Positions 40,190 to 58,510 are shown, counted from the stretch's first letter. The stretch: DNA of 64,000 nt from an uncultured Candidatus Rokubacteria bacterium (GCA_963826115.1 CAWGVS010000001.1:32001-96000); one strand, 5' to 3'. Numbers and translations are program-made. Notes: generated by a model not told the origin, from the letters alone.

Positions 40190-40251
40190 GGGGGTAGGCG
40201 ACATAATGCCCTTTTCTCAGTCGGCCTCCACTCCCTCCTGCCGGGGGGGGG
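40190..40251 (-). repeat. IS91/ISCR-like end motif, copy A
   Basis: Reverse complement CCGACTGAGAAAAGGGCATTATGTCGCCTACCCCC; similar to 43261-43316 and to the + strand copies. Confidence 0.7.
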
Positions 40252-40330
40252 ACACGTCGTTGGCGGCCTCGCGCGTGAACGTCTCATCGAGACAAAGCTC
40301 ACCGCCGGGCGAGAAAGGTGAGGGGTAGGA

Positions 40331-40927
40331 CTACGCCTTGCGTACTGGGTAGCGCAGGTGTGTAACGCCGACGCCCGGGATCACCGTCGGGTTGCCAAGG
40401 ACGGCTGGCGCGCCGGCGAGGTGGTCGAAGAGTCGAACTCCGGAGCCAAGAAGAACCGCCGCGATGTCGACGTTGATTTCGTCGAGGAGGCCAGCATACA
40501 GCAATTGCTGGATGGTGTCAGCGCCGTGGGCCCCGACGGACTTCCCGCCGGCCGCGGCTTTGGCTTGGTTCACGGCGCTTTCGATGCCGTCGGTCACGAA
40601 TTGCACAGTCGAGTTGGGTCGCGGCCATCCGGCGGGGATGTGGTGGGTAAGTACGAATGCCGGTCCCCAAGCGTGATTTCCGTCCCAGCCATGGGCGATG
40701 TCGAAAGTGCGTCGACCGGTGAGCGCGGCACCAAGTCCGGACCAGAGACCGCGAAGGTGCTCGGCGCTCGCCCCGGACACCTTGAACGTCATGGGATCCG
40801 ACCCTCCGGTGTGGATTTCGATGTCCCCCGAGGTGAAGTACCAGTCGAACAATTCAGCCACGCCATCGTTGAGGTCGGCGATGTAGCCGTCGAGCGACAT
40901 GGACATGATTGCGACGACCTTCGACAT
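40331..40927 (-). CDS. Dihydrofolate reductase/RibD C-terminal family protein
   Basis: SMSLDGYIA, GRRTFD, FVLTH, GADTIQQ..LLDEI..LLGSGVRLF. Confidence 0.9.
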   Translation of the reverse strand: MSKVVAIMSMSLDGYIADLNDGVAELFDWYFTSGDIEIHTGGSDPMTFKVSGASAEHLRGLWSGLGAALTGRRTFDIAHGWDGNHAWGPAFVLTHHIPAGWPRPNSTVQFVTDGIESAVNQAKAAAGGKSVGAHGADTIQQLLYAGLLDEINVDIAAVLLGSGVRLFDHLAGAPAVLGNPTVIPGVGVTHLRYPVRKA

Positions 40928-41040
40928 TGCGATGTTCCTTTCGAGGAGTGGAGGCTGCGTTCACGGGATCGCGCGCTGTCCTCCCGGATCGTCCGCCCAA
41001 CGTTGGCGCTGAGCAACGGGTTAGACGCTTGCTTCAGTTC

Positions 41041-41517
41041 TCAACCCTTACGTCTCATGGGATTCTCTCGAGAAGTCTGCTGCCCGAGCTGTTGGGCGAG
41101 CCCGATGAGAATTCCTTCGGGACCCCGGATGTAGCAGAGCCGATACATGTCTCCATATTGGACCACTTCGCCGACGAGCTTCGCGCCGCGTTTGCCGAGT
41201 CGGGCGAGCGTATCGTCGATGTCCTCCACGGTGAACATGACGCGCAGGTAGCCAAGAGCGTTCACTGGGGCGCTGCGGTGATCGGCGACCACTGGTGGCG
41301 CGAGGAAACGGGACATCTCGAGCCTGCTGTGACCGTCCGGCGTACGCATCATGGCAATCTCGACGCGCATGTCGCGCAATCCAGTGACGCGATCTGCCCA
41401 GTCTCCTTCGACTGGGGCGCGCCCCTCGAGCTCGAGACCAAGTTCGGTGAAGAACTCAATGGCGGCATCAATGTCTTCCACCACGATGCCGACGTTGTCC
41501 ATACGCTTGACCGTCAT
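41041..41517 (-). CDS. VOC (glyoxalase) family protein
   Basis: MDNVGIVVEDIDAAIEFF..YRLCYIRGPEG. Confidence 0.9.
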   Translation of the reverse strand: MTVKRMDNVGIVVEDIDAAIEFFTELGLELEGRAPVEGDWADRVTGLRDMRVEIAMMRTPDGHSRLEMSRFLAPPVVADHRSAPVNALGYLRVMFTVEDIDDTLARLGKRGAKLVGEVVQYGDMYRLCYIRGPEGILIGLAQQLGQQTSRENPMRRKG

Positions 41518-41617
41518 GATGTCTCCTAGGCGTCTAACGAACAGTAGGCTGACCCGCTCTGCTCGCGACCGGGCGCCACTCCCGGGGGGCGCCCGGCGGC
41601 AACCTCTCAATCGAATA

Positions 41618-42298
41618 TCAGTGCGCGTGAACCGCCGCCTTCGGATCGGCGATCGCATCGTCACGCTCGGTCGGCACCTGATGTCGTGCCAGTCTGGCGA
41701 ACGTCAGCAGGTGCAGTAGGATGAACAGCGGCACCAGGAACGTCGGAATCAGGCTGACGGGGAACGTGACCATGAGCTCCGTCGTGACGCCGCCGCGGCT
41801 CAGTACGCCAAGCGGGCCGTTCGAGTACAGAACCCCCACCACCAGGGCCGACAGGAGATCGGCGAGCCCGAACGTGTTCCAGACGAGCAGCCACGTCCGC
41901 GAGACGGTTCCTCGTCGAAGGCTGGGAAGAAGGGCGAGGGCGCCGGCCGCGGTCACGGCATCACCAAGACCTTCCGGAATCGCAAACCCGCCCGGCAGCC
42001 TGCCGAACATCCAGGCCGCCACGAACCCGAAGCCGACGAATCGCCAGGTGTGCAGCCCGACCATCCACGTCAGGCTGAAACGATCGGTCCACGCCCGCAG
42101 CGACGGGCTGAGGCGGTACGCCACGACGCCAAGCGCGATGGGGACGACGATGAACGAGAGGAGAATCACCGGCGGCTGGCCCGGCCGGTTGACGAGGCCC
42201 GTCGTGGCGCCGACGATGGCGGCGACGAGCCAGACGAGGAGCGCGAACCCGGTGACCACCCGCACGGTCGAGAATCGAGAGTAATGGATCTGAGTCAT
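41618..42298 (-). CDS. Hypothetical multi-pass membrane protein
   Basis: HTWRFVG..LP..FA.P.G.GD..WNTFG..D..FPVSLIPTFLVP..LH; AGGAG RBS. Confidence 0.8.
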   Translation of the reverse strand: MTQIHYSRFSTVRVVTGFALLVWLVAAIVGATTGLVNRPGQPPVILLSFIVVPIALGVVAYRLSPSLRAWTDRFSLTWMVGLHTWRFVGFGFVAAWMFGRLPGGFAIPEGLGDAVTAAGALALLPSLRRGTVSRTWLLVWNTFGLADLLSALVVGVLYSNGPLGVLSRGGVTTELMVTFPVSLIPTFLVPLFILLHLLTFARLARHQVPTERDDAIADPKAAVHAH

Positions 42299-42314
42299 AC
42301 GAGTCTCCTTAGAC

Positions 42315-42328
42315 TGTGCATATGCACA
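42315..42328. promoter_or_regulatory. Palindromic operator (putative MarR site)
   Basis: TGTGCATATGCACA perfect palindrome just upstream of the membrane-protein gene. Confidence 0.65.
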
Positions 42329-42351
42329 CTTATGCTCCACGAACGCCGTCC

Positions 42352-42810
42352 TCACGCACTCCGTTGACGTGTGACGGACTGACCGAGGTACCGGAGCGCG
42401 AGGCGCCACCCCGAATCCGGCACCTGCGCGCGCACCTCGTCCTGCACGCCCCGCCAGGCCGGGTAGACGCACGCGAGCAACGCACGTCCCTTCGCGGTCG
42501 CGCGCAGCTCGTCATGCCGGTGCCCCGCGGCGCGACGGACCTCCACCAGGCGCCGGCGCACCAGCGGCCGGACGTTGCGCAGGAGCGTCGTCCGGTCCAT
42601 CCCCAGGCTCTCCGCGAGTGGCGCGAGACGGACGCTGTCGCCCGTCGCCGCAGCCGTGAGGATCGGGAGTTGCGTGGCGCGGAGACCGAACGGGCGCAGG
42701 GCCGCGTCGTACCGCTGCGTGACGATCCTCGTCGTCCGTCTGAGGGCCAGGCACAGGCAGTCCTGGAAATCCTTCAGTTCGGCGCCGGTCGGGGTTTGGC
42801 GGGGCATCAT
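42352..42810 (-). CDS. MarR-family transcriptional regulator
   Basis: CLCLALRRTTR.VTQRYD.AL.PFGL.ATQ..LGMDRTTL.RN. Confidence 0.9.
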   Translation of the reverse strand: MMPRQTPTGAELKDFQDCLCLALRRTTRIVTQRYDAALRPFGLRATQLPILTAAATGDSVRLAPLAESLGMDRTTLLRNVRPLVRRRLVEVRRAAGHRHDELRATAKGRALLACVYPAWRGVQDEVRAQVPDSGWRLALRYLGQSVTRQRSA

Positions 42811-42813
42811 GAG

Positions 42814-42827
42814 TGTGCATATACACA
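42814..42827. promoter_or_regulatory. Palindromic operator (putative MarR autoregulatory site)
   Basis: TGTGCATATACACA, one mismatch to 42315-42328, adjacent to the marR start. Confidence 0.65.
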
Positions 42828-43195
42828 GTATAAGACGTCGCCATCCAGGTCAAGGTTCACCGTTGCCTCCCAGAACGCGAGATCCGTCTCCACGACATGG
42901 TGTCGCCGCGATTCTTCCCTGGAAGGCATCGCGTTCGACGGAAATCGATTCAATGGACCGCCGCAACGGCACAACTGTTCAAGTACTTGACGCGTTTTTG
43001 AGAGTGCTCGCGCAGAGATGGCGAGCCTAACAGGAATCGAACCGACGCGAGGCCGATGCGCTCCCACAATCGGATTGTTCCTGAGCAGTCGCCAAGGGAT
43101 GCCGCCCACAGGTCGTGGGCCATGGTCGGGTGGCGCCCGAGGCCGCCGCTGATGACCCCGCCGAGACCCGCTCGGGGCCGCCGTCCCCACGGCGC

Positions 43196-43260
43196 AACTG
43201 GACGTGGGCAGCCCTCATGCGACGCGCGTTCGCGATCGCCGTGTTGGCCTGTCCGAACTG
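43196..43260 (+). mobile_element. IS91-family transposase C-terminal fragment
   Basis: NWTWAALMRRAFAIAVLACP matches WPWAQLLRRVFGVDVLVC of the 57482-58276 remnant. Confidence 0.6.
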
Positions 43261-43316
43261 GGGGGTAGGCGACATGCTTTTCTCAGTCGGGCTCCACTCC
43301 CTCCTCCCGGGGGGGG
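43261..43316 (-). repeat. IS91/ISCR-like end motif, copy B
   Basis: GGGGGTAGGCGACAT..CTTTTCTCAGTCGG.CTCCACTCCCTCCT.CCGGGGGGGG shared with 40190-40251. Confidence 0.7.
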
Positions 43317-43412
43317 CTCCACTCCCTCCTCCCGGGGGACCGCTGAACATCGCGGCCCTGGCGCTTCGAATCCCGAGGTAGTCCGTCTGGACGCCTATCG
43401 TGAACGCGTCGA

Positions 43413-43952
43413 TCGAACCAGCGGTGGTGCTCCGACGTCTTCCTCATCCCGTGCTGGAGCGGCGAGGTCCTGTCCGTCGCCTTCGCGATCGACTGTCACG
43501 ATCGCGAGGGCCTCGCCTGGACCGCCTCGCCGCGGCCGCTGACGGGTGCCGACATTCGCACGCTCATGGACACGGCGTTGTGGGCCCGCTTCGGCGAGGC
43601 GACGGCCATGGCGCCGCACGCGATCCAGTGGCTCAGCGACAACGCCCCGCAGTACACCGCGACGGCCAGCGTCCTCTACGCGCATGAGCTCGGCCTGGTG
43701 CCGATCACCACGCCGGCGTACAGCCCCGAGAGCAATGGCCTGGCGGAAGCCTTCGTGAAGACCTTCAAGCGGGACTATGTCGGCGGGCCGGAGCTCCGCG
43801 ACGCCGAATCGGTGCTCATGCAGCTGGGTGGGTGGTTTGCCGACTACAATACCCAGGCGCCCCACGGCGCGCTGGGACTCCGGAGCCCGGTGGAGTACCG
43901 GGCGACCTTAGGACTCGCGCCCCCATCTGTCTAGCGAACTGGGAGCACTCCA
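43413..43952 (+). mobile_element. IS3-family (IS2-like) OrfB remnant with right terminal repeat
   Basis: SNQRWCSD..AFAIDCHDRE..WLSDN..SPESNGLAEAFVKTFKRDY (DDE); ends ..GGGAGCACTCCA. Confidence 0.85.
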
Positions 43953-44012
43953 AGGTCGGCATGCTAGGCCGCCTTTACCCGCCCACGTAGGGGCACGGTC
44001 AAGCTAAAGCGG

Positions 44013-44041
44013 TGGTGGCTCCAACGGGATTCGAACCCGTG
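44013..44041 (-). repeat. tRNA-Glu-like 3' end remnant (att-like)
   Basis: Reverse complement CACGGGTTCGAATCCCGTTGGAGCCACCA: T-arm, acceptor 3' strand and CCA. Confidence 0.75.
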
Positions 44042-44448
44042 CTTGAATCGAGATCACGCTTTCGCCAGTCAGCTCGCGAGGTTACGCGCTGTCTAGTTCC
44101 GAACAAGGAGACGGGACTCAAACCTCAGACCGTGCCAATTCCCGGAAGAAGCGCTCCAGGAGATTCCTGAGCACCAGCGTGAACCTGTCTTCCGGGTTCA
44201 CCGCGGCGGCCTGGCGCACCCCATCGCCGCGAACTTGTAGTAGCCCATCTGCCGACCGATGCCCACGACCCTCGACTTGAAGTCGCCGAGCGTCGCGCCC
44301 GCGCCGCTGTCGCCGGTGACCTGCCGGTAGACGTCGCCCACGAGGCCGACGTGGCAGTGCTCCGACAGGAACTGGGACGCGACCTCTCGGCGCCGGCAAG
44401 CCGGATTGCGTAGACTGTGAGGCCTGACCCCCTTTTCAGGAGGCGACG

Positions 44449-45432
44449 ATGGCGCAGGCGAGCACGATGAGCTACGAGGTCGTCGAGGGTTGGGAGCAGC
44501 TGCCCGCCGGCTGGGAGCACCGGGACGTGGCCGGGGTCGCCGTCGACGCGGAGAGCCGCGTCTACCTGATCTGCCGCGGCGAGCACCCGATCATTGTCTA
44601 CGACAGCCAGGGGAACTTCATTCGCGCCTGGGGCGAGGGCGACTTCACCCTGCGGACGCATGGAATCACGGTCGGCCCCGACGGGACCGTCTACGCCACC
44701 GATGACGGCAATCACACGGTGCGCCAGTTCACTCCCGGCGGAAAGCTGCTGATGACCCTGGGAACGCTGAACACCCCCTCCGACACCGGGTACGACGGCA
44801 AGAGCACGGTCACCGCAACCAGGCCCGGAGGGCCCTTCAATCGCCCGACCAACGTGGCGATCGGACCCCGGGGCGACGTCTACGTCTCCGACGGCTACGG
44901 GAACTGCCGGGTCCACCGCTTCTCGCCCACCGGTGAGCTGAAGCGCTCGTGGGGCGCGGCCGGCCAGGGCCCCGGCGAGTTCTTCCTGCCCCACGGCATC
45001 GCCGTGGCGGCGGACGGGCGCGTGTTCGTCTGCGACCGGGAGAACGACCGCATCCAGATCTTCAGCCCCGACGGCGAGTATCTCGCCCAGTGGACCGACA
45101 CCCGGCGGCCGACCCACCTCGTGTTCGACGGCCAGGGCCGAGCCTACGTCTCCGAGCTGTGGTGGCAGCCGGGCCAGACCTCCCGGCGCTACGGACCGGC
45201 CGGGGAGCTCCGCGCGGGCCGCGTCAGCGTCTACGACCGGGAGGGACGCGTCCTCGCGCGCTGGGGCGGGCCGGATCCGGTCGCGGCCGGTAGCTTCGCG
45301 GCTCCCCACGGCATCGCCGTGGATTCGAAAAACGACGTGTACGTGAGCGAGGTCACCTGGACGTTCGCGGCCAGCCGCGGCCACGTGCCGGCGGGCTGCC
45401 ATACGTTCCAGAAGTTCGCGCTACGAGGGTAG
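44449..45432 (+). CDS. NHL-repeat beta-propeller (PAL-like)
   Basis: HGITV, FNRPTNVA..VYVSDGYGN.RVH.F, PHGIAV..DRENDRIQIF. Confidence 0.9.
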   Translation: MAQASTMSYEVVEGWEQLPAGWEHRDVAGVAVDAESRVYLICRGEHPIIVYDSQGNFIRAWGEGDFTLRTHGITVGPDGTVYATDDGNHTVRQFTPGGKLLMTLGTLNTPSDTGYDGKSTVTATRPGGPFNRPTNVAIGPRGDVYVSDGYGNCRVHRFSPTGELKRSWGAAGQGPGEFFLPHGIAVAADGRVFVCDRENDRIQIFSPDGEYLAQWTDTRRPTHLVFDGQGRAYVSELWWQPGQTSRRYGPAGELRAGRVSVYDREGRVLARWGGPDPVAAGSFAAPHGIAVDSKNDVYVSEVTWTFAASRGHVPAGCHTFQKFALRG

Positions 45433-45590
45433 GCGGCTCGCCAGCGCCGACGGCGATCCCGCCCAGGATCAGCACGACGGCCGCGACGAGCAACGGGGTC
45501 AGCGCCTCGCCGAGCCACAGGGTCGCCAGCAGCGCCAGCGCCGTGACGACTGCCGGCAGGTCCCGGTCGTTTTCCCCGAGGGGGGCGCGG

Positions 45591-46610
45591 CTAGCGGGGT
45601 GCCGGCCAGACGATGGCCGCGCCCGCGCCGCCGAATTGGCCCCGGCGGGTGAGGAAGTTTTCCGCGCTCAGGAGCACGATCATGAGCAAGGACAGGCAGA
45701 CCAGGAACATCGCGATGCCGATCACGATCTCGAGGATCTTGAGATTCTCGAACAGCGAGGGTATCGACCTGCCTCCGCGTTCCCGGCGCACCCGCAGCTT
45801 CGCCGGGATCGTCGCCACGCGCCACGCGGTATTGGCCGCCAAGGCGATTCCCACGGCGGCGATTGCGAGTCCGACGCCGACGAACACGAGGATGCCGAAG
45901 CGCGTGCCGGCGCTGCCCTCGAGATAGTTTTGCGTCGTGGCGGCAACCAGGCGCGGGGTGCGTGCGAACGCCTCACCGATCCGCGAGAACCAGGGTCGCT
46001 GTGAGCGCCGGTCCGCGGCCGCCCTCGCGTGAATCGCCTCCGCATCGTCGTTGCCCATTTCTTTGCGCAGGGCCTTGATGAGGGCGTCGAATCCGCGCTC
46101 GTACTGGCCCTGCGGAAAGGCGGGGGCGAGATGCGATTCGAGCAGCTGCCGCACGCGGGCGTCGGTGAACACCGACTCGAGCCCGTAGCCCACGTCGATG
46201 CGCGCGATCCGCGGCTCCGTGAAGACGAATACGACGAGCCCGGTGTCGTTCTTCGCCGCGCCGATCTTCCAGTCGGTGGCGGTCTGAATCGTCCACGCCG
46301 CAAGGTCCCCTTCCGGCGGCTTGCGGTCGACATAGACAACGATCTCCGCGCGCTCGTCATTGAGCAATGCCCCGGCCCACTCGCTGGCAAACTTGGGCGA
46401 CACGATCCCGACTCGGTCGACGAAGGCCTGGGCGGGCTGCGCGAGCGATGGCGGAGGCGGGAGCTTGCGCGGCGCGGCGAAGATCAGAAGCAGGATGACC
46501 GCCGCGAACGTCGCCAGCGACCACCGGACGATCCGAACCATCCGGGGCGTCACGAGCGCCGCCGCGGTTCCCTTCGGAGTGGGCTTGGCAGCGGGCTTGG
46601 ACAAGGGCAT
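45591..46610 (-). CDS. TPM-domain membrane protein
   Basis: WKIG..DTGLV..RIDVGYGLE..TD..GGAGA. Confidence 0.85.
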   Translation of the reverse strand: MPLSKPAAKPTPKGTAAALVTPRMVRIVRWSLATFAAVILLLIFAAPRKLPPPPSLAQPAQAFVDRVGIVSPKFASEWAGALLNDERAEIVVYVDRKPPEGDLAAWTIQTATDWKIGAAKNDTGLVVFVFTEPRIARIDVGYGLESVFTDARVRQLLESHLAPAFPQGQYERGFDALIKALRKEMGNDDAEAIHARAAADRRSQRPWFSRIGEAFARTPRLVAATTQNYLEGSAGTRFGILVFVGVGLAIAAVGIALAANTAWRVATIPAKLRVRRERGGRSIPSLFENLKILEIVIGIAMFLVCLSLLMIVLLSAENFLTRRGQFGGAGAAIVWPAPR

Positions 46611-46851
46611 CGCGTATTCCCTGGGTCTCCGCTTTGCACCGGCGGCCATGTCGCCGCGATTCGTGAGGCGTCGACGGACCGGAAGCCACGAGCGCTGGAA
46701 CCAGACCCAGCCAGCAGTCCCTCTCGTGCGCAGTGAGACGGTTAGTACGGCACCGGAACCTTCTCGAACGGGGGATCGTGAGCTCCCAACATCGCCGACC
46801 CGTCGCAGCGAAAGACGGTGTCTTGCGTTCGAGCTTGCCAATCCCCGTCGA

Positions 46852-47244
46852 TCAGCTGCAACCCGTTCGGGGCGTGCCTCGCGCTTTCCTGGGCACCAGC
46901 GTGCACGCGAAGGTGGCGGGCTGCTGCCGGTACTGGTCAAGGAGGGCCCGGAGCCGCGCCAGCGTTCGGTCCCGCTTGGAGAGGCCGATACCGTAGATCG
47001 CCAGATCGTTCACCAGCCGCGTGTAGAAGAAATGCTGGTGGTCACCAGTGTCCCGCATGCAGGGCGTCGGCTTCTGCGCCACGCGCAGGAGGAGCCCGAA
47101 CGCGTGGACGTACTCGCCGAGCACCGGCTCGTCACGGAGGTCCGGGGGAACCTCGGGGAAGCGTGCCAGGAACTCATCCACCGTCATCGGGGTGCGAACG
47201 GCCCGGGCGCATTCCTCCAGGTCCGACGATAGGTGTATCTGCAT
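46852..47244 (-). CDS. Hypothetical protein
   Basis: GGAGG RBS; protein-like composition. Confidence 0.6.
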   Translation of the reverse strand: MQIHLSSDLEECARAVRTPMTVDEFLARFPEVPPDLRDEPVLGEYVHAFGLLLRVAQKPTPCMRDTGDHQHFFYTRLVNDLAIYGIGLSKRDRTLARLRALLDQYRQQPATFACTLVPRKARGTPRTGCS

Positions 47245-48256: not shown

Positions 48257-48384
48257 TGGTGGCACGACGGGATTCGAACCCGTGTTTCAGTCACGATCGC
48301 CTCTGAGCCCATAGATTCGCGCGGTTAGGACGCATGACGCCTCCGAGAAGAGACGGGACTCGAACCTTCACGGGTTCGAATCCC
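48257..48384. repeat. tRNA-Glu-like 3' remnant with inverted T-arm copy
   Basis: GGGATTCGAACCCGTG (48269-48284) and CACGGGTTCGAATCCC (48369-48384) are perfect 16-bp inverted repeats; the interior resembles 44041-44127. Confidence 0.7.
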
Positions 48385-48471
48385 CGACGGGAACTGCCCC
48401 CCTTAGGTTGCTCGTACCCATCCGCGTCCGGGTACGGGCGGCCTGATGGCAGAACACTCGCCACTCTCCCC
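48381..48471 (+). repeat. 91-bp exact direct repeat, copy 1 (copy 2 at 51632-51722; degenerate copy ~50915-50985)
   Basis: TCCCCGACGGGAACTGCC..GCCACTCTCCCC identical in both. Confidence 0.9.
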
Positions 48472-48529
48472 TAACCCCAGGTTACCTAGGCCCAGATGAT
48501 CGAAGTGGTCCGTATATTTGATTCGCCAG

Positions 48530-48817
48530 CTCGGGCCCGGCCCGCCGCCTGGGGCGTCCGCCATCGCGCCCTGACGGCCCCTGATCTCACGGGGGCGCTC
48601 GATCTCTAGACTCGCGGCGGCGGATTGGGCCCGCCCGTGCTTCCCGGCCCCTCACCCGACGACGCCGAAGTCCTGGACGCCGCGGGTCCCATCCCGTGCC
48701 GTCCTTGACACTCTCCGCGCCGAAGGCACAGGATTGGGGTCGCGTGAGGCCGTCACGCAGGGCGAGTGTTGTCTGCCAGCCCCCATGGGACCCGACCGAG
48801 AAGGGGCTTTATGTCGA
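48530..48817 (+). repeat. ~290-bp IS91-like right-end region, copy 1 (copy 2 at 51907-52200)
   Basis: Long near-identical block ending CCCATGGGACCCGACCGAGAAGGGGCTTTATGTCGA. Confidence 0.85.
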
Positions 48818-49160
48818 TCAGGATCGCGAAGAGTACGAGCGGTGTGCGCGGCGGTCCACTCGGGTCCGTAGTGGTCGGCTCGGGGTCGTAGACGGTCGCA
48901 TCCTGGTGAGAGGTCGCCACCCCGACCGCCGGATCGGGTGGCAGTTGCGACCCGGGCTCGATCCGGGGCGGTATGGTCATGATGATGCCTCACTACTCGC
49001 GCTGCCCCGCCCAATGCAGATACCGTACCTGGCAATCACGCAGAGTCCTGGGTGAGCCTCGTTCCCAGCGCGGCCGATCGCAAGACCAGCAGAGTCCGTG
49101 TGTCGTTGGGCGACAATCGCCGTTGTCGTTCGGGCGGTGCTGCATGGAGAGGGTGATGCC

Positions 49161-50606
49161 ATGACGATGAGTGCCAGCAGCCTCTATCAACTGTCGATCG
49201 CCGAGCTCCTGCCACTGCTGCGACGACGTGAGCTATCGCCGGTCGAGGTTGCGGAGGCGGCGCTCGCTCGGATCGAGGCACTGAATCCGACGCTGAACGC
49301 CTTCTGCACGATCGACCCGGAGCTGGTCCGGGCCCAGGCGAAACGTGCCGAGCGTGAGCTGCTGGCGGGCGACGGCGTCGGGCCGCTCTGCGGCGTGCCG
49401 ATCGCCGTCAAGGATCTGATCTTCACCAGGGATCTGCGCACGGTTGGCGGCTCGACGGCGTACCGAGACTTCGTGCCGGAGGAGGACGACGTCACCGTCG
49501 AGCGGCTGCGTCAAGCTGGCGCCATCATCCTGGGCAAGACCAATGTGGCCGAGTTCGGCTACGGCCGGGGCCTCACCATTAATCCCGTGTTCGGTACCAC
49601 CCGCAACCCCTGGAACTTGGAGCGGACGCCCGGTAGCTCTAGCGGTGGCTCGGCGGCGGCGCTGGCGGCGGGGATGTGCCCGGGTGCGCTCGGGAGCGAC
49701 GGCGGCGGCTCTGTGCGCAGCCCCAGTAGCTACTGTGGCCTGTACGGCATCAAGGCGTCGTTTGGGCGAGTACCGCTCTATCCGAGCTGCCGCGACGTCC
49801 GCTATCCTGGTTTTAGTGGCTGGGAGACGCTGGAGCACATCGGGCCGATGGCGCGCACGGTGACTGACGTGGCACTCTTGCTGGACGTCCTGGCCGGGCC
49901 TGATCCGCGCGATCGTCACTCACTGCCGCGCGAAGCCGGCTCGTTCGCCGATCTCGATGGCGCCGACGTGAAGGGGCTGCGGATCGCCTGGACTGTCGAT
50001 TTCGGCGGCTACGCCCGGGCCGATGCCCCGGTGGCGGCAGCGGTTGAGGCAGCTGCGCGTCGGTTTGCGAACCTGGGGGCCCAGGTCGAGAACGCCACTC
50101 CGTTCACCGACGATCCGCGCACGTATTTCGCGGCCGTGGTGGCGTTCGACTCGGACGTCACGGCGATGCGCAAGCTGGCGGCCGAGCAGCCAGGCTCGAT
50201 CAGCGACGCGCTTGCAGCGTCAGTGGCGCGCGAATGGACCTACGCCGAATTGTCGGACGCCGCCACCGCCCGTCGCGACCTCTACAACAAGCTCTGGCGC
50301 TTCTTCGAGACCTACGATCTGCTGCTGACGCCAACCACGCCAACCGTCGCCTTCGACGTGACGCACTTCGGGCCGCGCGAAGTGGCCGGCGTGGCGGTCA
50401 CCTCAGACCGGCCGGCTCCCTCGTTCACCAGCCCATTCAACCTGACCGGCAACCCGGCCGCTAGCATCCCGGTCGGCTGGACCGAGGACGGCCTGCCGAT
50501 CGGGATGCAGATCATCGGCAACCACCTGGCCGACCACCTGGTGCTGCGGGCATCGCGAGCGTATGAGCGAGCGGCGCCGTGGGCCGATCGCTGGCCGGCG
50601 CTGTAA
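49161..50606 (+). CDS. Amidase signature family enzyme
   Basis: PIAVKD, GKTN, NPW..TPGSSSGGSAAA, GSDGGGSVRSP. Confidence 0.95.
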   Translation: MTMSASSLYQLSIAELLPLLRRRELSPVEVAEAALARIEALNPTLNAFCTIDPELVRAQAKRAERELLAGDGVGPLCGVPIAVKDLIFTRDLRTVGGSTAYRDFVPEEDDVTVERLRQAGAIILGKTNVAEFGYGRGLTINPVFGTTRNPWNLERTPGSSSGGSAAALAAGMCPGALGSDGGGSVRSPSSYCGLYGIKASFGRVPLYPSCRDVRYPGFSGWETLEHIGPMARTVTDVALLLDVLAGPDPRDRHSLPREAGSFADLDGADVKGLRIAWTVDFGGYARADAPVAAAVEAAARRFANLGAQVENATPFTDDPRTYFAAVVAFDSDVTAMRKLAAEQPGSISDALAASVAREWTYAELSDAATARRDLYNKLWRFFETYDLLLTPTTPTVAFDVTHFGPREVAGVAVTSDRPAPSFTSPFNLTGNPAASIPVGWTEDGLPIGMQIIGNHLADHLVLRASRAYERAAPWADRWPAL

Positions 50607-51170: not shown

Positions 51171-51199
51171 GGCGACGACCAGCTTGACCCCGAGGCCAC

Positions 51200-51697: not shown

Positions 51698-51769
51698 TGG
51701 CAGAACACTCGCCACTCTCCCCAAACCCAAGGCCACCTCAGCCGGCAGGGTCCCCCGTCCCCGCTCCGC

Positions 51770-52200
51770 AACTGGACCTGGCCGCCCTCGTGCGCCGCGC
51801 GTTTGCGATCGACGTGTTGACCTGCCTGCGCTGCGACGGGCGGCTGCGGGTGATCGCGACGGTCGAGGATCCACTCGCGGTGCGGCAGATCCTTGCGGCT
51901 GCGCCGCTCGGGCCCGGCCCGCCGCTTTGTGCGTCCGCCATCGCGCCCTGACGACCCCGGGTCTCACGGGGGCGCTCGATCTCTAGACTCGCGGCGCGGG
52001 ATCGGGCTCGCCGTGCTTCCCCGCGCCCTCGCCGAACGACGCCGAAGTCCTGGATGCCGCGGATCCCACCCCGTGCCGTCCTTGACACCCTCCGCGCCGA
52101 CGGCGCAGGGTTGGGGTCGCGGGAGGGCCGTCACGCAGGGGCGTGGTCCGCCAGCCCCCATGGGACCCGACCGAGAAGGGGTTTTGTGTCGACTACCCTC
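51770..52200 (+). mobile_element. IS91-family transposase tail plus right-end region
   Basis: AALVRRAFAIDVLTCLRCDGRLRVIATVEDP..VRQIL zinc-ribbon tail, then end motif ..GAGAAGGGGTTTTGTGTCGACTACCCTC. Confidence 0.75.
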
Positions 52201-52219
52201 TAAAGACAGGGAAGCGCTC

Positions 52220-52984
52220 ATGGCGAGACTGGCAGGACGGACCGCGATCGTCACCGGCGGGGCGAAGGGCATCGGCGTGCACTATTCCAAGGCGCTTGCC
52301 GCCGAGGGCGCCCAGGTGATGATCGCCGACATCGCAGATGGCTCGGAGCTCGCCGCCGAAATCGCCGCCAAGCACGGCCGCAACTCGACCGACAGCATGG
52401 TGTTCGACGTCAGCGACGAGGCGCAGTGCAAGGCGCTGGTCGCGCGCACCCTGGAGCGCTTCGGCAAGATCGACATCCTGATCAACAACGCCGCGCTCTA
52501 CGCGCCGCTGCCGACGCTCAAGGTGTCGGAGATCGACGTGGAGCTCTGGGACAAGGTGATGGCGATCAACATCCGCGGCCCGTTCCTGATGGTCAAGCAC
52601 ACGGCCCCGCACATGATCGCCAAGAAATACGGCAAGATCGTCAACATCGGCTCCGGCACGGTGGCGCGCGGCATTCCGGATTTCTCGCACTACGTGACCT
52701 CGAAGGGCGCGGTGACGGCGTTCACCCGCTGCATGTCGCGTGAGCTCGGCGAGCACGGCATCTGCGTCAACACGCTGGCACCGGGCTATACGCTGTCCGA
52801 CACCGGGCTGACCAACACCGTGCATGTGGAGAAATCCCGCGCCGGCGCGGTGCAGCGGCGGGCGCTCAAGCGCGACGAATACCCCGAGGATCTGCTCGGA
52901 ACCCTGGTTTTCCTGTGCTCGCCGGACTCTGATTTCATGACCGGCCAGGTGCTGGCGGTCGACGGCGGGTCTAATAACACCTAG
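52220..52984 (+). CDS. Short-chain dehydrogenase/reductase
   Basis: TGGAKGIG, NNAA, YVTSK, VNTLAPG. Confidence 0.95.
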   Translation: MARLAGRTAIVTGGAKGIGVHYSKALAAEGAQVMIADIADGSELAAEIAAKHGRNSTDSMVFDVSDEAQCKALVARTLERFGKIDILINNAALYAPLPTLKVSEIDVELWDKVMAINIRGPFLMVKHTAPHMIAKKYGKIVNIGSGTVARGIPDFSHYVTSKGAVTAFTRCMSRELGEHGICVNTLAPGYTLSDTGLTNTVHVEKSRAGAVQRRALKRDEYPEDLLGTLVFLCSPDSDFMTGQVLAVDGGSNNT

Positions 52985-53162
52985 CGGAACCGGGCCTTCC
53001 GGCCCGCAAATCACGCATATCGCCTGCGTTGCCGCGACCCTGTTAAAGGTACGCGAAAATCGCTATATCTTAGGCCAAGCAGGCCGAATTTGCCCTTTCG
53101 GGGCAGGGATTTCCAGGGAGCACGCCATGTCCGTCGCCCACGTCGACCCCAAGCATAACGTC

Positions 53163-53208
53163 CCCCCATGGGACCCGACCGAGAAGGGGCCTAATGTCGA
53201 CTACCCTC
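53163..53208 (+). repeat. IS91/ISCR-like end motif, copy E
   Basis: CCCCCATGGGACCCGACCGAGAAGGGGCCTAATGTCGACTACCCTC. Confidence 0.85.
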
Positions 53209-53220
53209 AGGCCATCGGCC

Positions 53221-53310
53221 ATGAAGTGTCCCCAGTGCCAGCAGGAAAACCCTGGGCATGCCGTCTTCTGCCAAGAGCGCGGCACCTCGGTTCGAGGGTG
53301 CGGTCGATAG
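53221..53310 (+). pseudogene. Double zinc-ribbon N-terminal fragment
   Basis: MKCPQCQQENP.HAVFC then an early stop. Confidence 0.5.
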
Positions 53311-53392
53311 GTGGGTCGGGTGGCTCGGCCGGGCCCGCGCCGTCATACACGAGCCGACGATGAAGACATGTTTCGTCGGTCCGGGGTGACGT

Positions 53393-53755
53393 ATGGCTGA
53401 CCGTCCTTCGGGGACATGGGCTGGCGATGTCGTACGCAAGCCAGATTCGACAGCCGTGACCACGGCCTTGTGGCGCGCCGCGCACATCCGACTGGACGCG
53501 CCTCCCCACGTCCTAGAGGACGAGATCGGCTTGCGGCTCGTTCGCGACACCGACGTCCTCGCCGCCTATTTGGGACCGGAGGCGGCCCCGGGGCCGGACG
53601 CGTGGTTGTCCCATCCGTATATGGGTGAGAGGTTCCGTCGCTTTCGCGCCGGCATTGTCGCCAGGGCGCGCCTTGTCGAGGACATTGTGGCCGAGCAGGT
53701 CGACCGCGGGCACGACCAGTATGTGATCGGCCGGCTCGCCTTCAAGCGGGCCTGA
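53393..53755 (+). pseudogene. Truncated LCM-type SAM methyltransferase
   Basis: DSTAVTTALWRAAH..ARARLVED..QYVI, breaks before LGAGLDT. Confidence 0.7.
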
Positions 53756-53943
53756 CGCCAGAGGTCTGCGAGGTGCTCTCGCGCACGGCGTCGGCTGGCA
53801 GCGACGGTGCGCGGCCCGCCGGGGCCTGGGTGTCCCCGAGGGGACTCGACGTCTTTACGCGGGCGTTCCGCGGGGTGCTCGTCGCGTGAGGCGGGGGCCG
53901 AGGAGGATCTCCGCGCCATCGTTTGTGTCCTTCGACCGATGCT

Positions 53944-54939
53944 TCAGGGTGCGACGATGGCAGGAATCACCCGATCCGCGAGGAGTTCGACCGTCTCCTC
54001 GTCCAACCCCAAGATCCCCGGAATGAAGTACTGGATGCCCGCCCCCGCCAAGCCCCGGTAATACGTGATCGCGTCGTCTGGCGTGCCGGCGAAGAGACTG
54101 GTCTGAATGAGAGCCTTCGTCGCCGACGGGATGGCATCGACCCTGGCCTCGACCCCGGCGCGGGTCGAACTCAGCATCAGTGGATACGTAATATGGCTGC
54201 GCAGCACCGACTCCGGAGGACGGCCGAGCACGGCACAGTGCTGGTCCAAAACGTCCAGCTTGCGCCGCACGTCGGCGACACTCTGAGCACCGCCTGTGTA
54301 GACGTGTTCGCCGAAGTTGGACATATCGGCGTACCGGGCCACCTGGCGCAGCGTCACGCGCTCCCCGCCGCCGCCGATCAAGAGCGGCAAATGCGGCCGC
54401 TGAATGGGCCCGAATGGGAGGGTCGCGTTGGTGACCCAGAAGTGCCGGCCCTTGTAGGTGAACGGGGCCTGGTCCACGACGCCGCGGACGATCTGGATCG
54501 TTTCCTCCAGGGCTTCTTGCCGCTCTCGCGGGCTTGGGAGATGGAGGCCCAGCTGCTCGAACTCCCAGAGGAAATCACCGGCACCGAGCCCGAGAACCAG
54601 CCGGCCCGCGCTCATGCGGTCGACGTCCGCGCTCATCCGTGCGAGCAAGCTCGGTTGGCGGTAGCCGACGCAGCTCACGAACGACCCGAGGCGGATGCGG
54701 GTGGTGACAACCGCCAGTGCCGCGAGGGTGGTCCAACAGTCCAGCCAGTTCATGGGGTGGTCGGTTTTCCAGTAGGAGTCGAACCCGAGGGCCTCGAGGC
54801 GCTGGACGAAGGTCTGAAACGCGGACCAGTCCGCCCCTTTCACCGAGGACACAGCCAGGCCGAACCGAATCTTGTGGTGGCCTTCGGCGACCCACGGGTG
54901 CGTGATCCAGGGCCCTGCCTTCGGCGGTCCCTCGTGCAT
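53944..54939 (-). CDS. LLM-class flavin-dependent oxidoreductase
   Basis: GFDSYW.TDH, TTRIRLG, RQPSLLARM..VD.MS.GRLVLGLGAG, LLIGGGGE. Confidence 0.9.
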   Translation of the reverse strand: MHEGPPKAGPWITHPWVAEGHHKIRFGLAVSSVKGADWSAFQTFVQRLEALGFDSYWKTDHPMNWLDCWTTLAALAVVTTRIRLGSFVSCVGYRQPSLLARMSADVDRMSAGRLVLGLGAGDFLWEFEQLGLHLPSPRERQEALEETIQIVRGVVDQAPFTYKGRHFWVTNATLPFGPIQRPHLPLLIGGGGERVTLRQVARYADMSNFGEHVYTGGAQSVADVRRKLDVLDQHCAVLGRPPESVLRSHITYPLMLSSTRAGVEARVDAIPSATKALIQTSLFAGTPDDAITYYRGLAGAGIQYFIPGILGLDEETVELLADRVIPAIVAP

Positions 54940-54991
54940 CGCAGCCCTCCCTGCCGACCGGACTCAAGCCGGCAGCTGGCGTATCCGGCCG

Positions 54992-55621
54992 TTATGGCGT
55001 GATGGGGTGGGGTCTCCGCCGCATGAACCAGAAGTGCGGCCCCCCGGCGGGGACATCTCCCTCGACGGCGATCTCGAAGCCGTACCGCTGGTAGAGCGGC
55101 ACGTTCCGCGGCGGCAGGCTCAACAGGTGGCACTCGACCCCGTCCTGGTCGGCCCGCGCGAGGCCCGCTCGCAAGAGCAGGCCTCCCAGGCCGAGGCCCT
55201 GCCGCGCGGGGTCCACGCCGATGAACATAAGATACCAATGGGGAATGGACTGGGCGGCCTCGCGGACACCGCTCAGGTGGTGAACCACCGCGTCGAGGCG
55301 CGCTCGCGCCCCCTCGCTGAACGCGCTGACCGCCGCGGTCACTCCCGCCTGATCTCTGCGTTCCTGGGTCCTCCGGATCCCGGCGCCCGGTGGGAACCAG
55401 ATGGCGCTCGCCTCGACCGGCCCGGCGGGCACGTCCACCACCCCGAAGAGAAGGCCGTACCGCGTCCAGGCCGTCATGAACGGCGGCATGAGGCGCTCCC
55501 GCTCGACGGGATCCGACAGCGAGTGGGTGAAGAGCGGATCGTCGGCGAAGGCCCGCGCCAGCACCGCTCCCGATTCCGCGACCTGCCCCTCAGCGAGTCT
55601 GACTGGCTCGGCCAAGCTCAT
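54992..55621 (-). CDS. GNAT acetyltransferase
   Basis: LARAFADDP, HWYL.FIGVDPARQGLGLG, NVPLYQRYGF. Confidence 0.9.
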   Translation of the reverse strand: MSLAEPVRLAEGQVAESGAVLARAFADDPLFTHSLSDPVERERLMPPFMTAWTRYGLLFGVVDVPAGPVEASAIWFPPGAGIRRTQERRDQAGVTAAVSAFSEGARARLDAVVHHLSGVREAAQSIPHWYLMFIGVDPARQGLGLGGLLLRAGLARADQDGVECHLLSLPPRNVPLYQRYGFEIAVEGDVPAGGPHFWFMRRRPHPITP

Positions 55622-55724
55622 GACGAGGTCACCTCACGATTCCAGTACCAGTGTCGTCCCCTGACCCGAATCACGGGAGTCCCCGACCGGCACAGGGGGC
55701 GCCGGAGGATGCTTCGACGGTGCG

Positions 55725-56585
55725 TCAGACCGTTGCTCTCATCATTTGCTCGTTCCACCACACGCTCAGACCATCACGGCGATCGCCGATATAGCGCCCA
55801 GCCGCTGCCTCGGGCGACAAGTGAGCGACACGCGAGAAGCCCATCCCCCTGAGCTTTGCCACGAGTTCGTCCGGAAGACACGCCGTCAGCCAGGGCTCAC
55901 CCATCTCGGCGGAGCGAGCCGCAAACGCGGCGACCAGCGCCGCCTCGTCCGGCGGCCGAGCAGACTCGGGCAGTACGAAGCTGAGAACGATTTCGCTCGA
56001 TGCGGGCATGGATAGCACGAACCTCAGCGTCAGGTCCAGGGAGGCCTCCGTGAGGTACTGGCTGACGCCGAGGAGTGCGAAGAACGTGGGGGCGGCGAAG
56101 TCGAGACCCGCGGCTGACAGGCCCTCGGTCAGGGTCACGCGCTCGAAGTCGACCGGGACCAGGCGTACGTTCCCAGGAATCGCAATATCCGCCCCGGCCA
56201 GCCGTCGGCGTTTCCGTTGCTGGCTCGCGGGATGGTCCACCTCGAACACGTGCAGTGGCCGGGCCCAGAGCGGCTGGCGATATGCGAAGGTGTCCAGGCC
56301 GGCGCCCAGGATCACGTACTGCCGGACGCCATCGCTGACCGACTCCGCCAAACAGTCTTCTGCGTACCGACTGCGCACGACAAACAGCGATCGGAACCGA
56401 GCCTGGAGCGGACGGGGAAGGCCCTCAAAGCGTGCCAGGGCGCCCTTGTAGAAGTCGCCGTCCGGCTCGATCAACTTCGCCGCGATCGGATCGACCAGGA
56501 TCTTGGGGTCGTCGTCAACGGACTGATGTAGCGCGCGCATGATCGCGGCCGCCTCGGCGGTCGCACTCCAACGCTGTTCGTGCAT
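55725..56585 (-). CDS. Class I SAM-dependent methyltransferase (LCM-like)
   Basis: QYVILGAGLDT, FEVDHP, VDF, LGVSQYL. Confidence 0.9.
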   Translation of the reverse strand: MHEQRWSATAEAAAIMRALHQSVDDDPKILVDPIAAKLIEPDGDFYKGALARFEGLPRPLQARFRSLFVVRSRYAEDCLAESVSDGVRQYVILGAGLDTFAYRQPLWARPLHVFEVDHPASQQRKRRRLAGADIAIPGNVRLVPVDFERVTLTEGLSAAGLDFAAPTFFALLGVSQYLTEASLDLTLRFVLSMPASSEIVLSFVLPESARPPDEAALVAAFAARSAEMGEPWLTACLPDELVAKLRGMGFSRVAHLSPEAAAGRYIGDRRDGLSVWWNEQMMRATV

Positions 56586-56815
56586 CGAACGCCGCGGTTC
56601 AGAATCGGAGGAGCGGCTGGAATCGCTGGAGGCCCAGGATCATCCGGCCGGTCTCCTCGCACTGCTGCGGGAACATACCGACATGCTGGGTCGCGGCATG
56701 GACATCGCGCAGCGACCGCTGTGCCGCGCACACAAACGATGAAAGCCACCTCCCTCGGAGCGACCGCCACCGGGGGCCCGGCGAGCGGCAGCCGCACGAT
56801 CGCCGGAGTTGAGCT

Positions 56816-57229
56816 TCACCGCTCTCGTTCCCATACGATCTTGCGGAAATCAACTTTGCCCGGAAACAGAACGCTCGCAGCAGGGACCGACTCGATGATG
56901 AGCTTGTCGCCATCAATCTTGAAACGCCGCCTCTGCTCCGTTCCATTCCACTTTTCGTTCCATGAGGCATCGACCGTTGTGATGAACTCCTCACCTTCCA
57001 CACGGTACTTGCCCGTATAAGCAAGCATGGACGTGTAGAGTGCCGCACGCTCTGGTTCGGTCTCTCCGGGGGTGCGATTTTCAGCGGTGGTAAGCGCCAT
57101 GGCGCGTCCCTCGCGTGTCAGGATCAAGGAGCCCTTTGGTTTGGACCCAAAGAAATCCCGCGCCCCGTCTTCGCTGACAACCTGCCAAGAGACAAGTTTC
57201 CAATTGCCAACCAGCAGTTCCGCACTCAT
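56816..57229 (-). CDS. Lipocalin-like domain protein
   Basis: LVGNWKLVSW..G..PKG..AYTGKY..GTEQRR..WER. Confidence 0.85.
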   Translation of the reverse strand: MSAELLVGNWKLVSWQVVSEDGARDFFGSKPKGSLILTREGRAMALTTAENRTPGETEPERAALYTSMLAYTGKYRVEGEEFITTVDASWNEKWNGTEQRRRFKIDGDKLIIESVPAASVLFPGKVDFRKIVWERER

Positions 57230-57481
57230 TGACGCTGCCCCCACACTCGAACATCGTGGATAGAACAGGCGATCCACATAATCAGGCTTGCCCGAAGTCT
57301 AGGACAGAATTGCCAGCCTCCGCACCTAGCACTTGCGAACCTGCGTCATTCCTACGCGGCGCAAAGCCTGTTTCCTGCCCCCTCCCCGATCACTAGCGCC
57401 AAGAGCCGGTGGCCTTGCATATGAACCTGCGATCTATCTCGGCGACGGTGCCAACGCCCGAAAGAAACATCGTGTTTCTCA

Positions 57482-58510
57482 GTTCCGCCGCCGACCGATG
57501 CCGACATCACGGCGCTGCTCACACGGGTCCACCGCCGCGTGCAGCGGCTCTTGATCCGCCGGGGGCGGTGGCCGGCCGACGACGCCGGGAGCGATCCGTT
57601 CGCGGCCCAGGAGCCGCTGTTCGCCAGCGCGGTGGCGGCGTCGCTCCAGGGCCGGGTGGCGCTGGGACCACGGGCCGGGCAGACAGTGCGCCGGCTCCGC
57701 TCGGCGGCCGCCGCGACGGCGACCGGGCGACGCTCGGCCCGGCTCGCGGGATTTAGTCTGCATGCGAATGTCGCGGTGCCCGCGCGCCGACGGGATCAGC
57801 TGGAGCGTCTGGTGCGCTACCTGGTGCGCCCACCGCTGGCGCTCGACCGACTGACGGAGAGCCCGGGGGGGCAGCTGCTGTACCAGTTCCGCCGCCCGTG
57901 GCGTGATGGCTCGACGGCGCTCCTCTTGGACCCACTGGAATTGTTGGAACGACTGGCGGCCTTGGTGCCCCCGCCGCGCCGGCCGTTGCTCGCGTACCAC
58001 GGCGTGCTGGCCCCGCGCGCTCGCTGGAGATCGGCCATCGTGCCGAAGCCACTGCCGGCCGACGCGCGGGCGGCGGCGGCGCCGGTCCCGCGCCGCTGGC
58101 CCTGGGCCCAGCTCCTGCGCCGGGTATTCGGGGTTGACGTGCTCGTGTGTGACCGCTGTGCCGGGCCGCGGCGGATCCTGGGCGCGGTGATGGAGCCCCA
58201 CGCCGTGCGCCGGCTCTTGGCGGCGCTCGGGTTCGCCGCCGAGCCGCCCCCCGGCCGCCCCGTCCCCGCCGCCTGACCCACGGTCGATCGCGCTCCCCAC
58301 CCCGGCGCCGCTGGTCCCGTCTGTCCAGCGCTGCGGGGGACACGTCTTGGGCCCTCCCGTGCCGACCGCCGGCGGCCCTTGCCGGCCCCGCCGGAGCCGC
58401 GGTATCGTTCCGCGGTATCGTTCCGGCGGCAGCCACCGGCGGCCGGGGGGCGGGCCGACGTGATGGAGGGCGGGACGAGGGGGCCGAGAAACGTGTTTAG
58501 CATTGCCTAG
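57482..58510 (+). mobile_element. IS91/ISCR-family rolling-circle transposase remnant (C-terminal half, stop at 58276) plus right end
   Basis: GFSLHANV..LERLVRYLVRPPLALDRL..WRDGST..LERLAALVPPPR..YHGVLAP..CDRCAG; HUH N-terminus absent; end-like CCGAGAAACGTGTTTAGCATTGCCTA. Confidence 0.8.

Follow-up and report, generated by a model that had tools for sequence, protein, structure and literature searches.

The closest described systems to the DNA reported here are the rolling-circle insertion sequences (ISs) of the IS91 family and the ISCR elements. According to PMC13181058, PMC3189936 and PMC5737581, IS91-family transposases nick the right end, oriIS, beside a tetranucleotide and displace the bottom strand towards terIS; termination often fails or falls at other tetranucleotides, giving right-end fragments or recruited upstream DNA, and single-strand circles insert beside a target tetranucleotide, the ends functioning with a transposase supplied in trans. 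In detail, oriIS has subterminal palindromes beside the target tetranucleotide, CTCG or GTTC serves as the cleavage site of terIS, no target duplication is formed, and the published sites of the family are CTTG, GTTC and CTCG (PMC13181058). A mini-IS91 with ends of 89 and 82 bp is described as moving in trans, with one-ended events at 11-53% (PMC13181058), and right-end fragments of IS801 of 229, 360 and 679 nt are described, like upstream DNA, as moving in vivo with a tetranucleotide as the limit of each (PMC3189936). The sequence examined here (the window, 64,000 nucleotides, G000:C1:32001-96000) belongs to the genome of an uncultured Candidatus Rokubacteria bacterium, with an assembly of 6.24 Mb in 12 contigs, ~70-72% G+C and 99% complete. 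A motif found six times in the window is a module of ~46 nt that closes the oriIS-type right end of rolling-circle elements from the ISCR/IS91 group; these elements are native to the family of uncultured soil bacteria examined. Judging from the sequence comparisons below, such ori-end modules probably build one-directional, shuffled, cassette-like arrays by one-ended transposition in trans, a reading that we favour with reservations.

The module consists of a CCCC..GGGG palindrome followed by CGACCGAGAAGGGGC and then TTTATGTCGACTACC, with a CTCN-type tetranucleotide past its tip. In most aligned copies the tip is followed by CTCN, TTCN or CACT, and in the copy named F by GTTC. Its identity as an oriIS-type end follows from its position downstream of a transposase, its fixed outer edge and the adjacent tetranucleotide. 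P0001, the transposase frame of the window (283 amino acids), has relatives in 50 of the 101 related genomes, many as fragments and some as frames of ~500-550 amino acids; the unpublished genome G055 contributes solely to this tally. Among 12 loci of such relatives, a version of the motif ends 215-285 nt past the transposase stop codon in eight (L001, L002, L006-L010 and L012), and the similarity of these copies to each other ends at the motif. The motif is cut in L011, and in L003-L005 the transposase frame itself is truncated or chimeric. L012 comes from another unpublished genome (G038), and the oriIS-type identity of the motif holds without it.

The loci L009 and L010 delimit a whole element. 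They are 88% identical over ~1.98 kb, from a GC-rich hairpin to the motif, within unrelated, non-duplicated flanks. The element starts with GGCGGTGGAGG...CTCCGCC and has neither terminal inverted repeats nor a target duplication. The full-length proteins of L009 and L002 contain PF14319 (Zn_Tnp_IS91) and PF04986 (Y2_Tnp), the HUH and tyrosine residues of the transposases being judged by eye. Their best NCBIfam match is ISCR clade Ia (E 3e-102, positions 23-488 of 509), at 343 and 337 bits against a cut-off of 925 for this model (NF052416), so that they fall outside that narrow clade. The model of IS91 proper (NF033538) gives 72 and 63 bits against a cut-off of 125, over the N-terminal part only, which likewise places them outside it. 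Their assignment to the wider IS91/ISCR group rests on the zinc-binding and Y2_Tnp domains, on the dissimilar ends with a GC-rich hairpin on the left and on the missing target duplication. The sequence-only reading, which had taken the motif for an IS91/ISCR ori end, is borne out on this point by the loci of the relatives, where the motif follows intact genes and ends at a fixed base beside a CTCN-type tetranucleotide. A group II intron end and Tn3-type or other inverted-repeat ends were also considered and were dropped, as the relatives show the motif behind IS91-type transposases.

A profile of the ~300-nt tail that precedes some modules had no match in L001-L012, which indicates a lineage-specific tail. 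The module profile matched at E <=1 in 6 of 66 named loci, which indicates that the ends of more distant elements have diverged. Folding of the module as single-stranded DNA gave z-scores of -0.26 to +1.49, with pairing in the inner palindrome only, and supports no special fold.

Within the window, an nhmmer profile of 18 element ends (ten from the own genome and eight from relatives, one row being L012) recovers the motif at all six places where it had been claimed, the divergent copy near 58485 included. The tips lie at 40190 and 43262 on the minus strand and at 48817 (cut), 52200, 53208 and 58514 on the plus strand; hits with E >1 (36902, 49575 and 57356) were set aside. A 32-nt pattern allowing up to three mismatches matches at 52167-52198 and 53175-53206, with no match of any kind in 100 shuffles. 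A 19-nt core adds 48798-48816, giving three matches against a mean of 0.57 expected, a number reached in 2 of 100 shuffles. One end follows a transposase gene that is 5'-truncated, a second follows what is left of such a gene, its last ~55 codons, a third has a non-coding tail only, and three are short solo modules. Two copies thus follow IS91-type transposase tails, as had been proposed (51772-51939, and 57482-58273 with PF04986 at E 3e-15).

The six copies differ in their surroundings. The variant of module A is also present three times in G001:C14. Copy C, the tip of which is truncated after TGTCGA, lies in a region 89% identical to G003:C9:4020-4421, and the region of copy D is 90% identical to G008:C53; the two copies have ~300 nt upstream of the motif in common (repeats D1-D3). 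The upstream flank of module E is unique, and the homology of copy F with G003:C12 (87%) ends at 58514. Module B is a nested insertion, its tip cutting a transposase remnant (43100-43261), the DNA of which is 86% identical to G019:C31 up to 43263; this remnant, being short (54 amino acids), has no Pfam match.

The transposase itself survives in this genome in pieces. The sole PF04986 match lies at window positions 57626-58018, and tblastn with two full-length relatives found four fragments, namely 51694-51939 and 57482-58273 in the window, C4:53839-54033 and C12:409435-409587. The fragment of copy D shows 49% identity over 63 amino acids and matches ISCR clade Ia at positions 446-485, and the truncated transposase at 57482-58276 is 79% identical to a full-length protein of G017 (ISCR clade Ia, E 7e-44). 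Among the matches listed, G003, G014 (chimeric), G017 and several sister-family genomes have long open frames, and G000 and G008 have none. With fragments only in the genome, its ~16-17 module copies are all non-autonomous, as the earlier reading had inferred for such ends, and the array of the own genome is most likely a fossil record of transposition events, since no intact transposase was found.

Modules occur in two forms. In ~18 tail copies, ...GTCCGCCAG comes before the module, with subterminal DNA of up to ~250 nt; in ~25 short copies the CCCC..GGGG palindrome comes first, and the DNA upstream of it is unrelated in the alignments. There are at least five sequence subfamilies, each with short copies that have the identical inner boundary. 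This common boundary is beyond what random decay would give. In two loci, L018 (2837) and L055 (2527), modules are cut at the same base (after ...TGTCGAC) and have one following flank in common. In L018 this flank runs on into an IS5-like transposase, an indication that the IS5-like element targets the module.

The distribution of the modules in the family was followed with a model of 24 aligned modules (R1, 47 nt, alignment A1), which was run on 21 genomes of the family. It found 148 copies in 16 of them (1.28 per Mb), 63 of which have a neighbour within 5 kb. Adjacent copies form 38 pairs with a spacing of 477-4178 nt, 35 on the same strand and three on opposite strands; three of the 38 pairs are paralogous or orthologous segments that hardly differ from each other (G008:C19, C31, C32; G004:C11), and kin genomes are not independent. 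Across the family, the copies form same-strand arrays at gene-size spacing. On contig C1 the orientation flips (- - + + + - -), so that the bias is not due to the direction of chromosome replication.

Short modules also mostly lie on the strand of the gene before them. Over the fetched arrays, a hand count of short modules with a Pfam-supported non-transposase open reading frame (ORF) within ~400 nt upstream gave 16 of 18 co-oriented with that gene and two opposite; tail copies and duplicate cassettes were left out, as were modules that have before them the transposase of another IS or no ORF supported by Pfam. The upstream genes belong to the cupin, GNAT, VOC, hydrolase, DinB, RibD_C, YCII, GH88 and short-chain dehydrogenase/reductase (SDR) families. 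ORFs on the opposite strand of the arrays are mostly transposases of other families, the ISs present being of IS110, IS5-like, ISAzo13 and Transposase_29 types. In G008:C75, four short modules follow genes for an alpha/beta-hydrolase, a VOC protein, a GNAT protein and a cupin, that is, four gene-module units in a row, with 11-285 nt from stop codon to module and 26 to ~250 nt from tip to the next gene. Start codons stand 16-47 nt past the tip in five cases. Across the family the arrays are regular enough to suggest a real cassette-handling process.

Boundaries of cargo coincide with module edges in four comparisons with relatives, as would be expected from the claim that the motif delimits captured genes. 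The first concerns contig C3 of the own genome, which reads tail-module, DinB, module, RibD_C-like gene, module and AAGCGTGTTTGCGG..., and G008:C95, which reads tail-module, RibD_C-like gene (92%), IS110 insertion with module, DinB (82%), module and AAGCGCGTTTGCGG...; the two arrays have the same ends and a permuted gene order. In G004:C28, a 665-bp block that is 93-94% identical to three loci of G008 lies between two identical short modules, starting with CTCG directly past the tip of one and ending 3 nt before the other. In G008 the sequence runs on without a break through both edges of the block, the left one lying inside an ORF, which indicates that the state in G004:C28 is that of a captured fragment. 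A VOC cassette, 98.7% identical over 634 nt between G003:C9 and G004:C28, starts in both at the tip (...CCCTC, then TTGTAGAGGG...), and the upstream units are different: GNAT, the repeat D2, tail and module in one case, epoxide hydrolase and a module of a different subtype in the other. Finally, the homology of the RibD_C block of the window with G019:C24 (93%) ends between 40253 and 40254, the inner edge of module A.

What has to be accounted for is the nature of the motif, with its discrete short form and an outer edge that is fixed, together with the same-strand arrays and the module-edge boundaries in these four comparisons. Under one-ended transposition, a transposase supplied in trans would nick at the module tip and replication would proceed inward through the module into upstream DNA, halting at a tetranucleotide or at the tip of the next module, itself a cleavage site. 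The released product would be a gene-plus-module unit or a bare 46-nt module, the counterpart of the miniature right-end fragments of IS801; the 46-nt form would be the minimal product, terminated just past the palindrome. A module seeded 3' of a gene could mobilise this gene back to a tetranucleotide or to the previous tip. Units would re-insert beside a CTCN site, by preference at the tip of a resident module, and arrays would grow and be reshuffled in this way. Insertion at the tetranucleotide beside a resident tip would place the new unit directly downstream in the same orientation, which would account for the same-strand arrays, the gene starts right after tips and the permuted orders. 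A wider proposal is that the 46-nt modules form an HUH-transposase-based counterpart of the integron, with one gene and one module per cassette, nicking of tips by a transposase from elsewhere, ori-to-ori single-strand circles, re-insertion at the tip of any resident module and exchange between soil bacteria, all in the absence of attC sites and a tyrosine recombinase; it is offered tentatively, as a possibility that we hold rather doubtful.

Several results weigh against one-ended transposition as the builder of the arrays. No intact transposase was found in the 99%-complete own assembly (one PF04986 match and four tblastn fragments), nor among the matches listed for G008, which has 45 modules. 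Between C3 and G008:C95 the homology covers just the genes, beginning ~6 nt ahead of the start codon and ending with the stop codon, and the module subtype there tracks the genome and not the gene. The counts of R1 are inflated by kin genomes and by paralogous segments (G008:C19, C31, C32). Empty-site comparisons at C12:610171 and C5:2095497 found no collinear locus lacking the module, and the cassette presence/absence pair looked for in relatives was not found. At C5:2095497 a 105-nt tail is kept and the breakpoint lies upstream of tail and module, with at least 2.8 kb beyond the tip collinear (90-92%) in three other genomes; at C12:610171 the copy is opposite to both neighbouring genes. The units of the window (amidase, SDR, RibD_C to MarR) have no close copies elsewhere, being mosaics or 69-73% similar to relatives, and the cargo of G008:C75 is likewise without close copies, a search with that array giving cargo matches of only 65-75% and no second context. 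Modules are also missing at two mosaic junctions of the window (45566 and 46661). The integron-like accretion of the sequence-only reading is supported in part, as to its ori ends, arrays and module-edge boundaries, and the mobility of the window's own units and a transposase acting in trans are unsupported. Of 24 public runs, 20 contained 8-20% of the words sampled; four consist of short Logan contigs, in which joints with sides of less than 32 letters bear neither way on circles or cassette-less variants. The one indirect trace of one-ended events with single-strand circles is the block of G004:C28 that starts with CTCG between identical modules.

Part of this evidence would fit an IS graveyard, in which the modules are decayed ISCR/IS91 insertions in a dispensable, horizontally acquired region, rearranged by RecA-type or slipped recombination among numerous near-identical 46-nt repeats. 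The transposase fragments of the own genome, the various tail lengths of ~18 copies, the many other IS types within the arrays, the subtype that tracks the genome and the mosaic junctions lacking modules all point in this direction, and the authors of the IS801 study attribute most natural IS801 fragments to reorganisation (PMC3189936). However, random decay does not explain a single inner boundary, at the palindrome, in ~25 short copies of several subfamilies, nor does it explain a captured fragment that begins with CTCG exactly at a tip or the 35:3 bias in strand. In addition, 46 nt is short for efficient homologous exchange. We thus regard a graveyard as unlikely, though it keeps some weight.

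A spread of the module on its own, like that of repetitive extragenic palindromic (REP) sequences or MITEs (miniature inverted-repeat transposable elements), would make the genes between the modules passive residents of spacers into which a mobile 46-nt unit inserted. It would suit the discrete short form and the copy at C12:610171, which lies in a promoter region opposite to its neighbours, and IS801 miniature fragments are reported to insert by themselves (PMC3189936). It would also suit the bare or partly tandem modules of L036 (1927-1985) and L057 (3001). This reading is quite improbable given that no collinear empty site was found, that the DNA outside the module-bounded blocks is unrelated between genomes, that modules inserting one by one into a fixed backbone would not permute the genes that lie between identical array ends, and that 16 of 18 upstream genes are co-oriented; moreover, the module is polar and its flanks carry neither a matching inverted end nor a duplication. 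In L036 (1927-1985) and L057 (~2960-3028), modules have an internal partial duplication or a new module starts immediately after them, and these could be bare-module insertions at a tip. The gene-repeat-gene layout with start codons close behind the tips, the outward promoters of the ISCR1 oriIS region (PMC6218425) and the 94% identity of the VOC cargo to an attC-flanked cassette elsewhere would agree with the repeats being integron attC sites or a promoter or operator common to the downstream genes. Yet the module lacks RYYYAAC...GTTRRRY cores and is a transposon end in relatives. A crude attC scan found two weak candidates in the 6.2 Mb of the own genome, none at modules, and seven in 548 kb of fetched loci, of which only three, in the positive controls L023 and L024, are attC-like. 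A sigma-70 scan of 40000-58700 gave three sites against 1.5 expected, none in a module. The attC reading is largely refuted, and the probability of either version is very small.

Table 1. Positions of modules, genes and remnants in the window.
Feature	Position	Strand	Evidence
Module A, short solo oriIS-type end, GGAGTGGAG spacer variant	40190..40253	-	tip 40190; profile 40190-40233, E 8e-7
RibD_C (DHFR-like) gene, co-oriented with module A	40331..40927	-	PF01872 E 1e-7
VOC/glyoxalase gene	41041..41664	-	PF00903 E 2e-10
MarR-like regulator	42352..42810	-	PF12802 E 3e-4, under Pfam cut-off
ISCR/IS91-type transposase C-terminal remnant, 54 amino acids	43100..43261	+	translation ends ...WTWAALMRRAFAIAVLACPNW
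Module B (43262-43299) with partial tandem duplication of its inner part	43262..43335	-	profile E 1e-3; repeats D6, D15
D2 companion repeat	48372..48492	+	other copies 51623-51743, 50915-50981; repeats D2, D7, D9
Copy C, ~255-nt subterminal tail and module 48780-48817	48524..48817	+	profile E 1e-6; repeats D1, D3
Amidase gene, between copies C and D	49098..50606	+	PF01425 E 1.5e-112
Copy D, last ~55 transposase codons, tail 51902-52154 and module 52155-52200	51772..52200	+	profile E 1e-9
SDR gene, start 19 nt past tip D, end 177 nt before module E	52220..52984	+	PF13561 E 7e-57
Module E, short solo, begins at CCCCCCATGGG palindrome	53162..53208	+	profile 53165-53208, E 2e-9; R1 58 bits; alignment A1
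5'-truncated ISCR/IS91-type transposase, C-terminal ~265 amino acids and stop	57482..58276	+	PF04986 E 3e-15
Copy F, divergent module 58480-58514 with its own tail, last bases ...CCTAG before GTTC	58277..58514	+	profile E 3e-3
5'-truncated MaoC-like frame abutting tip F	58515..58778	+	PF01575 positions 25-97 of 123

Pfam confirms that copies of the motif bracket the RibD_C (DHFR-like), VOC and MarR genes, the amidase and the SDR gene (table 1). The sequence-only reading was also right in placing the SDR start codon 19 nt beyond a motif (tip 52200) and in describing the MaoC gene as cut at another copy, since that frame lacks the first ~24 profile positions and begins directly after 58514. The RibD_C block (40254-41014) has its relative in G019:C24 in a place with no module. 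Two genomes from another family of the order have, in G021:C28 and G040:C158, a gene with 94% identity to the VOC block (41068-41539). On either side of that gene stand attC sites of canonical appearance (GTCTAAC...GTTAGAC, 58 and 70 nt); the VOC gene of the window retains only a GTTAGAC core before its start codon, and the own genome is almost without attC-like sites. The ORF at 41618-42472, between the VOC and MarR genes, has no Pfam match. Among the 40 relatives searched, amidase and SDR have DNA matches of only 69-73% (amidase ~69-70%).

A frame for a FitA-like ribbon-helix-helix antitoxin (39582-40163) lies just outside the tip of module A, and a fragment of an rve integrase core (43404-43934), a remnant of another IS, adjoins module B. 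Between 44319 and 48171 the window is a mosaic of gene-size blocks, with genes for an NHL-repeat protein, a TPM-domain protein and a nitroreductase; each block in the stretch of 44.3-48.2 kb has 93-96% identity to other genomes of the genus, where its context is different. A membrane-protein gene is cut short at the 45566 joint. Further downstream, a leucine-carboxyl-methyltransferase-like gene is present as a fragment (53390-53755, plus strand) and as a full copy (55725-56585, minus strand), and between them lie a luciferase-like monooxygenase and a GNAT gene, the block of the latter ending at its own stop codon (54993) in three other genomes.

Two further repeats accompany the arrays. D2 is a repeat of ~120 nt with a GTACCC...GGGTAC hairpin and stands directly before the truncated tails of copies C and D. 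It has 17 matches in 4 of the 21 genomes of the family, near arrays in G003, G004 and G008 and not always adjoining modules. D2 could be a small element in its own right or a left end; a role as left end of the transposon described here was set aside, there being no match in the full-length relatives. Repeats with a stretch similar to a tRNA 3' half (T arm and acceptor end, minus strand) lie at 44005-44144 and 48255-48375. A related repeat of ~210 nt forms a same-strand array of 15 copies over 66 kb (G000:C12:581383-647545), with one copy abutting the module at C12:610171, and similar same-strand series occur in G003:C10, G014:C7 and G008:C3/C4. ARAGORN found no tRNA or tmRNA in the window, L059, L037 and L041, and Rfam gave no match at gathering score over the whole window and, at E <=1 on 43900-48500, only an 18-nt look-alike of the tmRNA T arm.

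The capture of neighbouring genes by ISCR/IS91 elements has scarce direct evidence, which comes almost wholly from resistance regions of clinical Proteobacteria, and PMC6218425 states that, as of 2018, ISCR transposition had not been shown experimentally. The uncultured soil lineage presents a simpler and more regular form of such capture. If movement from ori to ori in trans is true, it would be a second, mechanistically unrelated route to cassette arrays, and the module would be both a search key for such arrays in metagenomes and a defined minimal substrate for testing ISCR-type transposition.

Compared with known systems, REP sequences are short palindrome-bearing repeats that derive from the end of an HUH (Y1) transposon, are mobilised by REP-associated tyrosine transposases (RAYTs) and spread with no adjacent transposase, in which they resemble the modules. 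The modules differ in being polar, with a fixed tip beside a tetranucleotide, clustered in accessory regions (at 1.28 per Mb) instead of spread over the genome, and placed at cargo breakpoints. With integron cassette arrays and attC clusters that lack an integrase, the arrays have in common a content of small accessory genes (GNAT, VOC, cupin, DinB, DHFR-like) that are co-oriented and poor in promoters, with a short structured repeat behind each, and a gene order that varies between genomes. On the contrary, the repeat here is a transposon end and not attC, and the enzyme would be an HUH rolling-circle transposase in place of a tyrosine recombinase. 'Integron-like' is thus valid as an analogy of architecture, not of mechanism.

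The one-ended products of IS801 and IS91 are closer. They consist of the right end only, with an outer end that is fixed and a tetranucleotide closing the inner one, and are described as mobilised in trans and as recruiting upstream DNA of variable length that ends at a tetranucleotide (PMC3189936, PMC13181058), comparable to the 665-bp block that starts with CTCG. The IS801 fragments reported there are of 229-679 nt and scattered; the modules are of ~46 nt, in several subfamilies and in same-strand single-gene arrays, and are known from sequence alone. To the ISCR elements (ISCR1, ISCR2; the 'common region' subgroup of IS91) the likeness lies in the Zn_Tnp_IS91 and Y2_Tnp domains, the best NCBIfam match over nearly the whole profile of ISCR clade Ia, the two unlike ends and an oriIS a few hundred nt 3' of the gene, as well as in varied accessory genes at the oriIS side and often truncated copies, as described for ISCR in PMC6218425 and PMC13393415. 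The differences are the score of 343 against 925 bits, which leaves the elements outside that clade, the occurrence mostly as 46-nt solo ends with no transposase, in one-orientation arrays after single genes, the uncultured soil phylum, the metabolic and detoxification cargo in place of resistance genes, and no outward sigma-70 promoter in the scan of 40000-58700. The literature searched gave no account of solo oriIS modules arrayed behind single genes. The kind of system is known from ISCR and from the one-ended products of IS801 and IS91, and what seems new is the arrayed solo 46-nt end after single genes.

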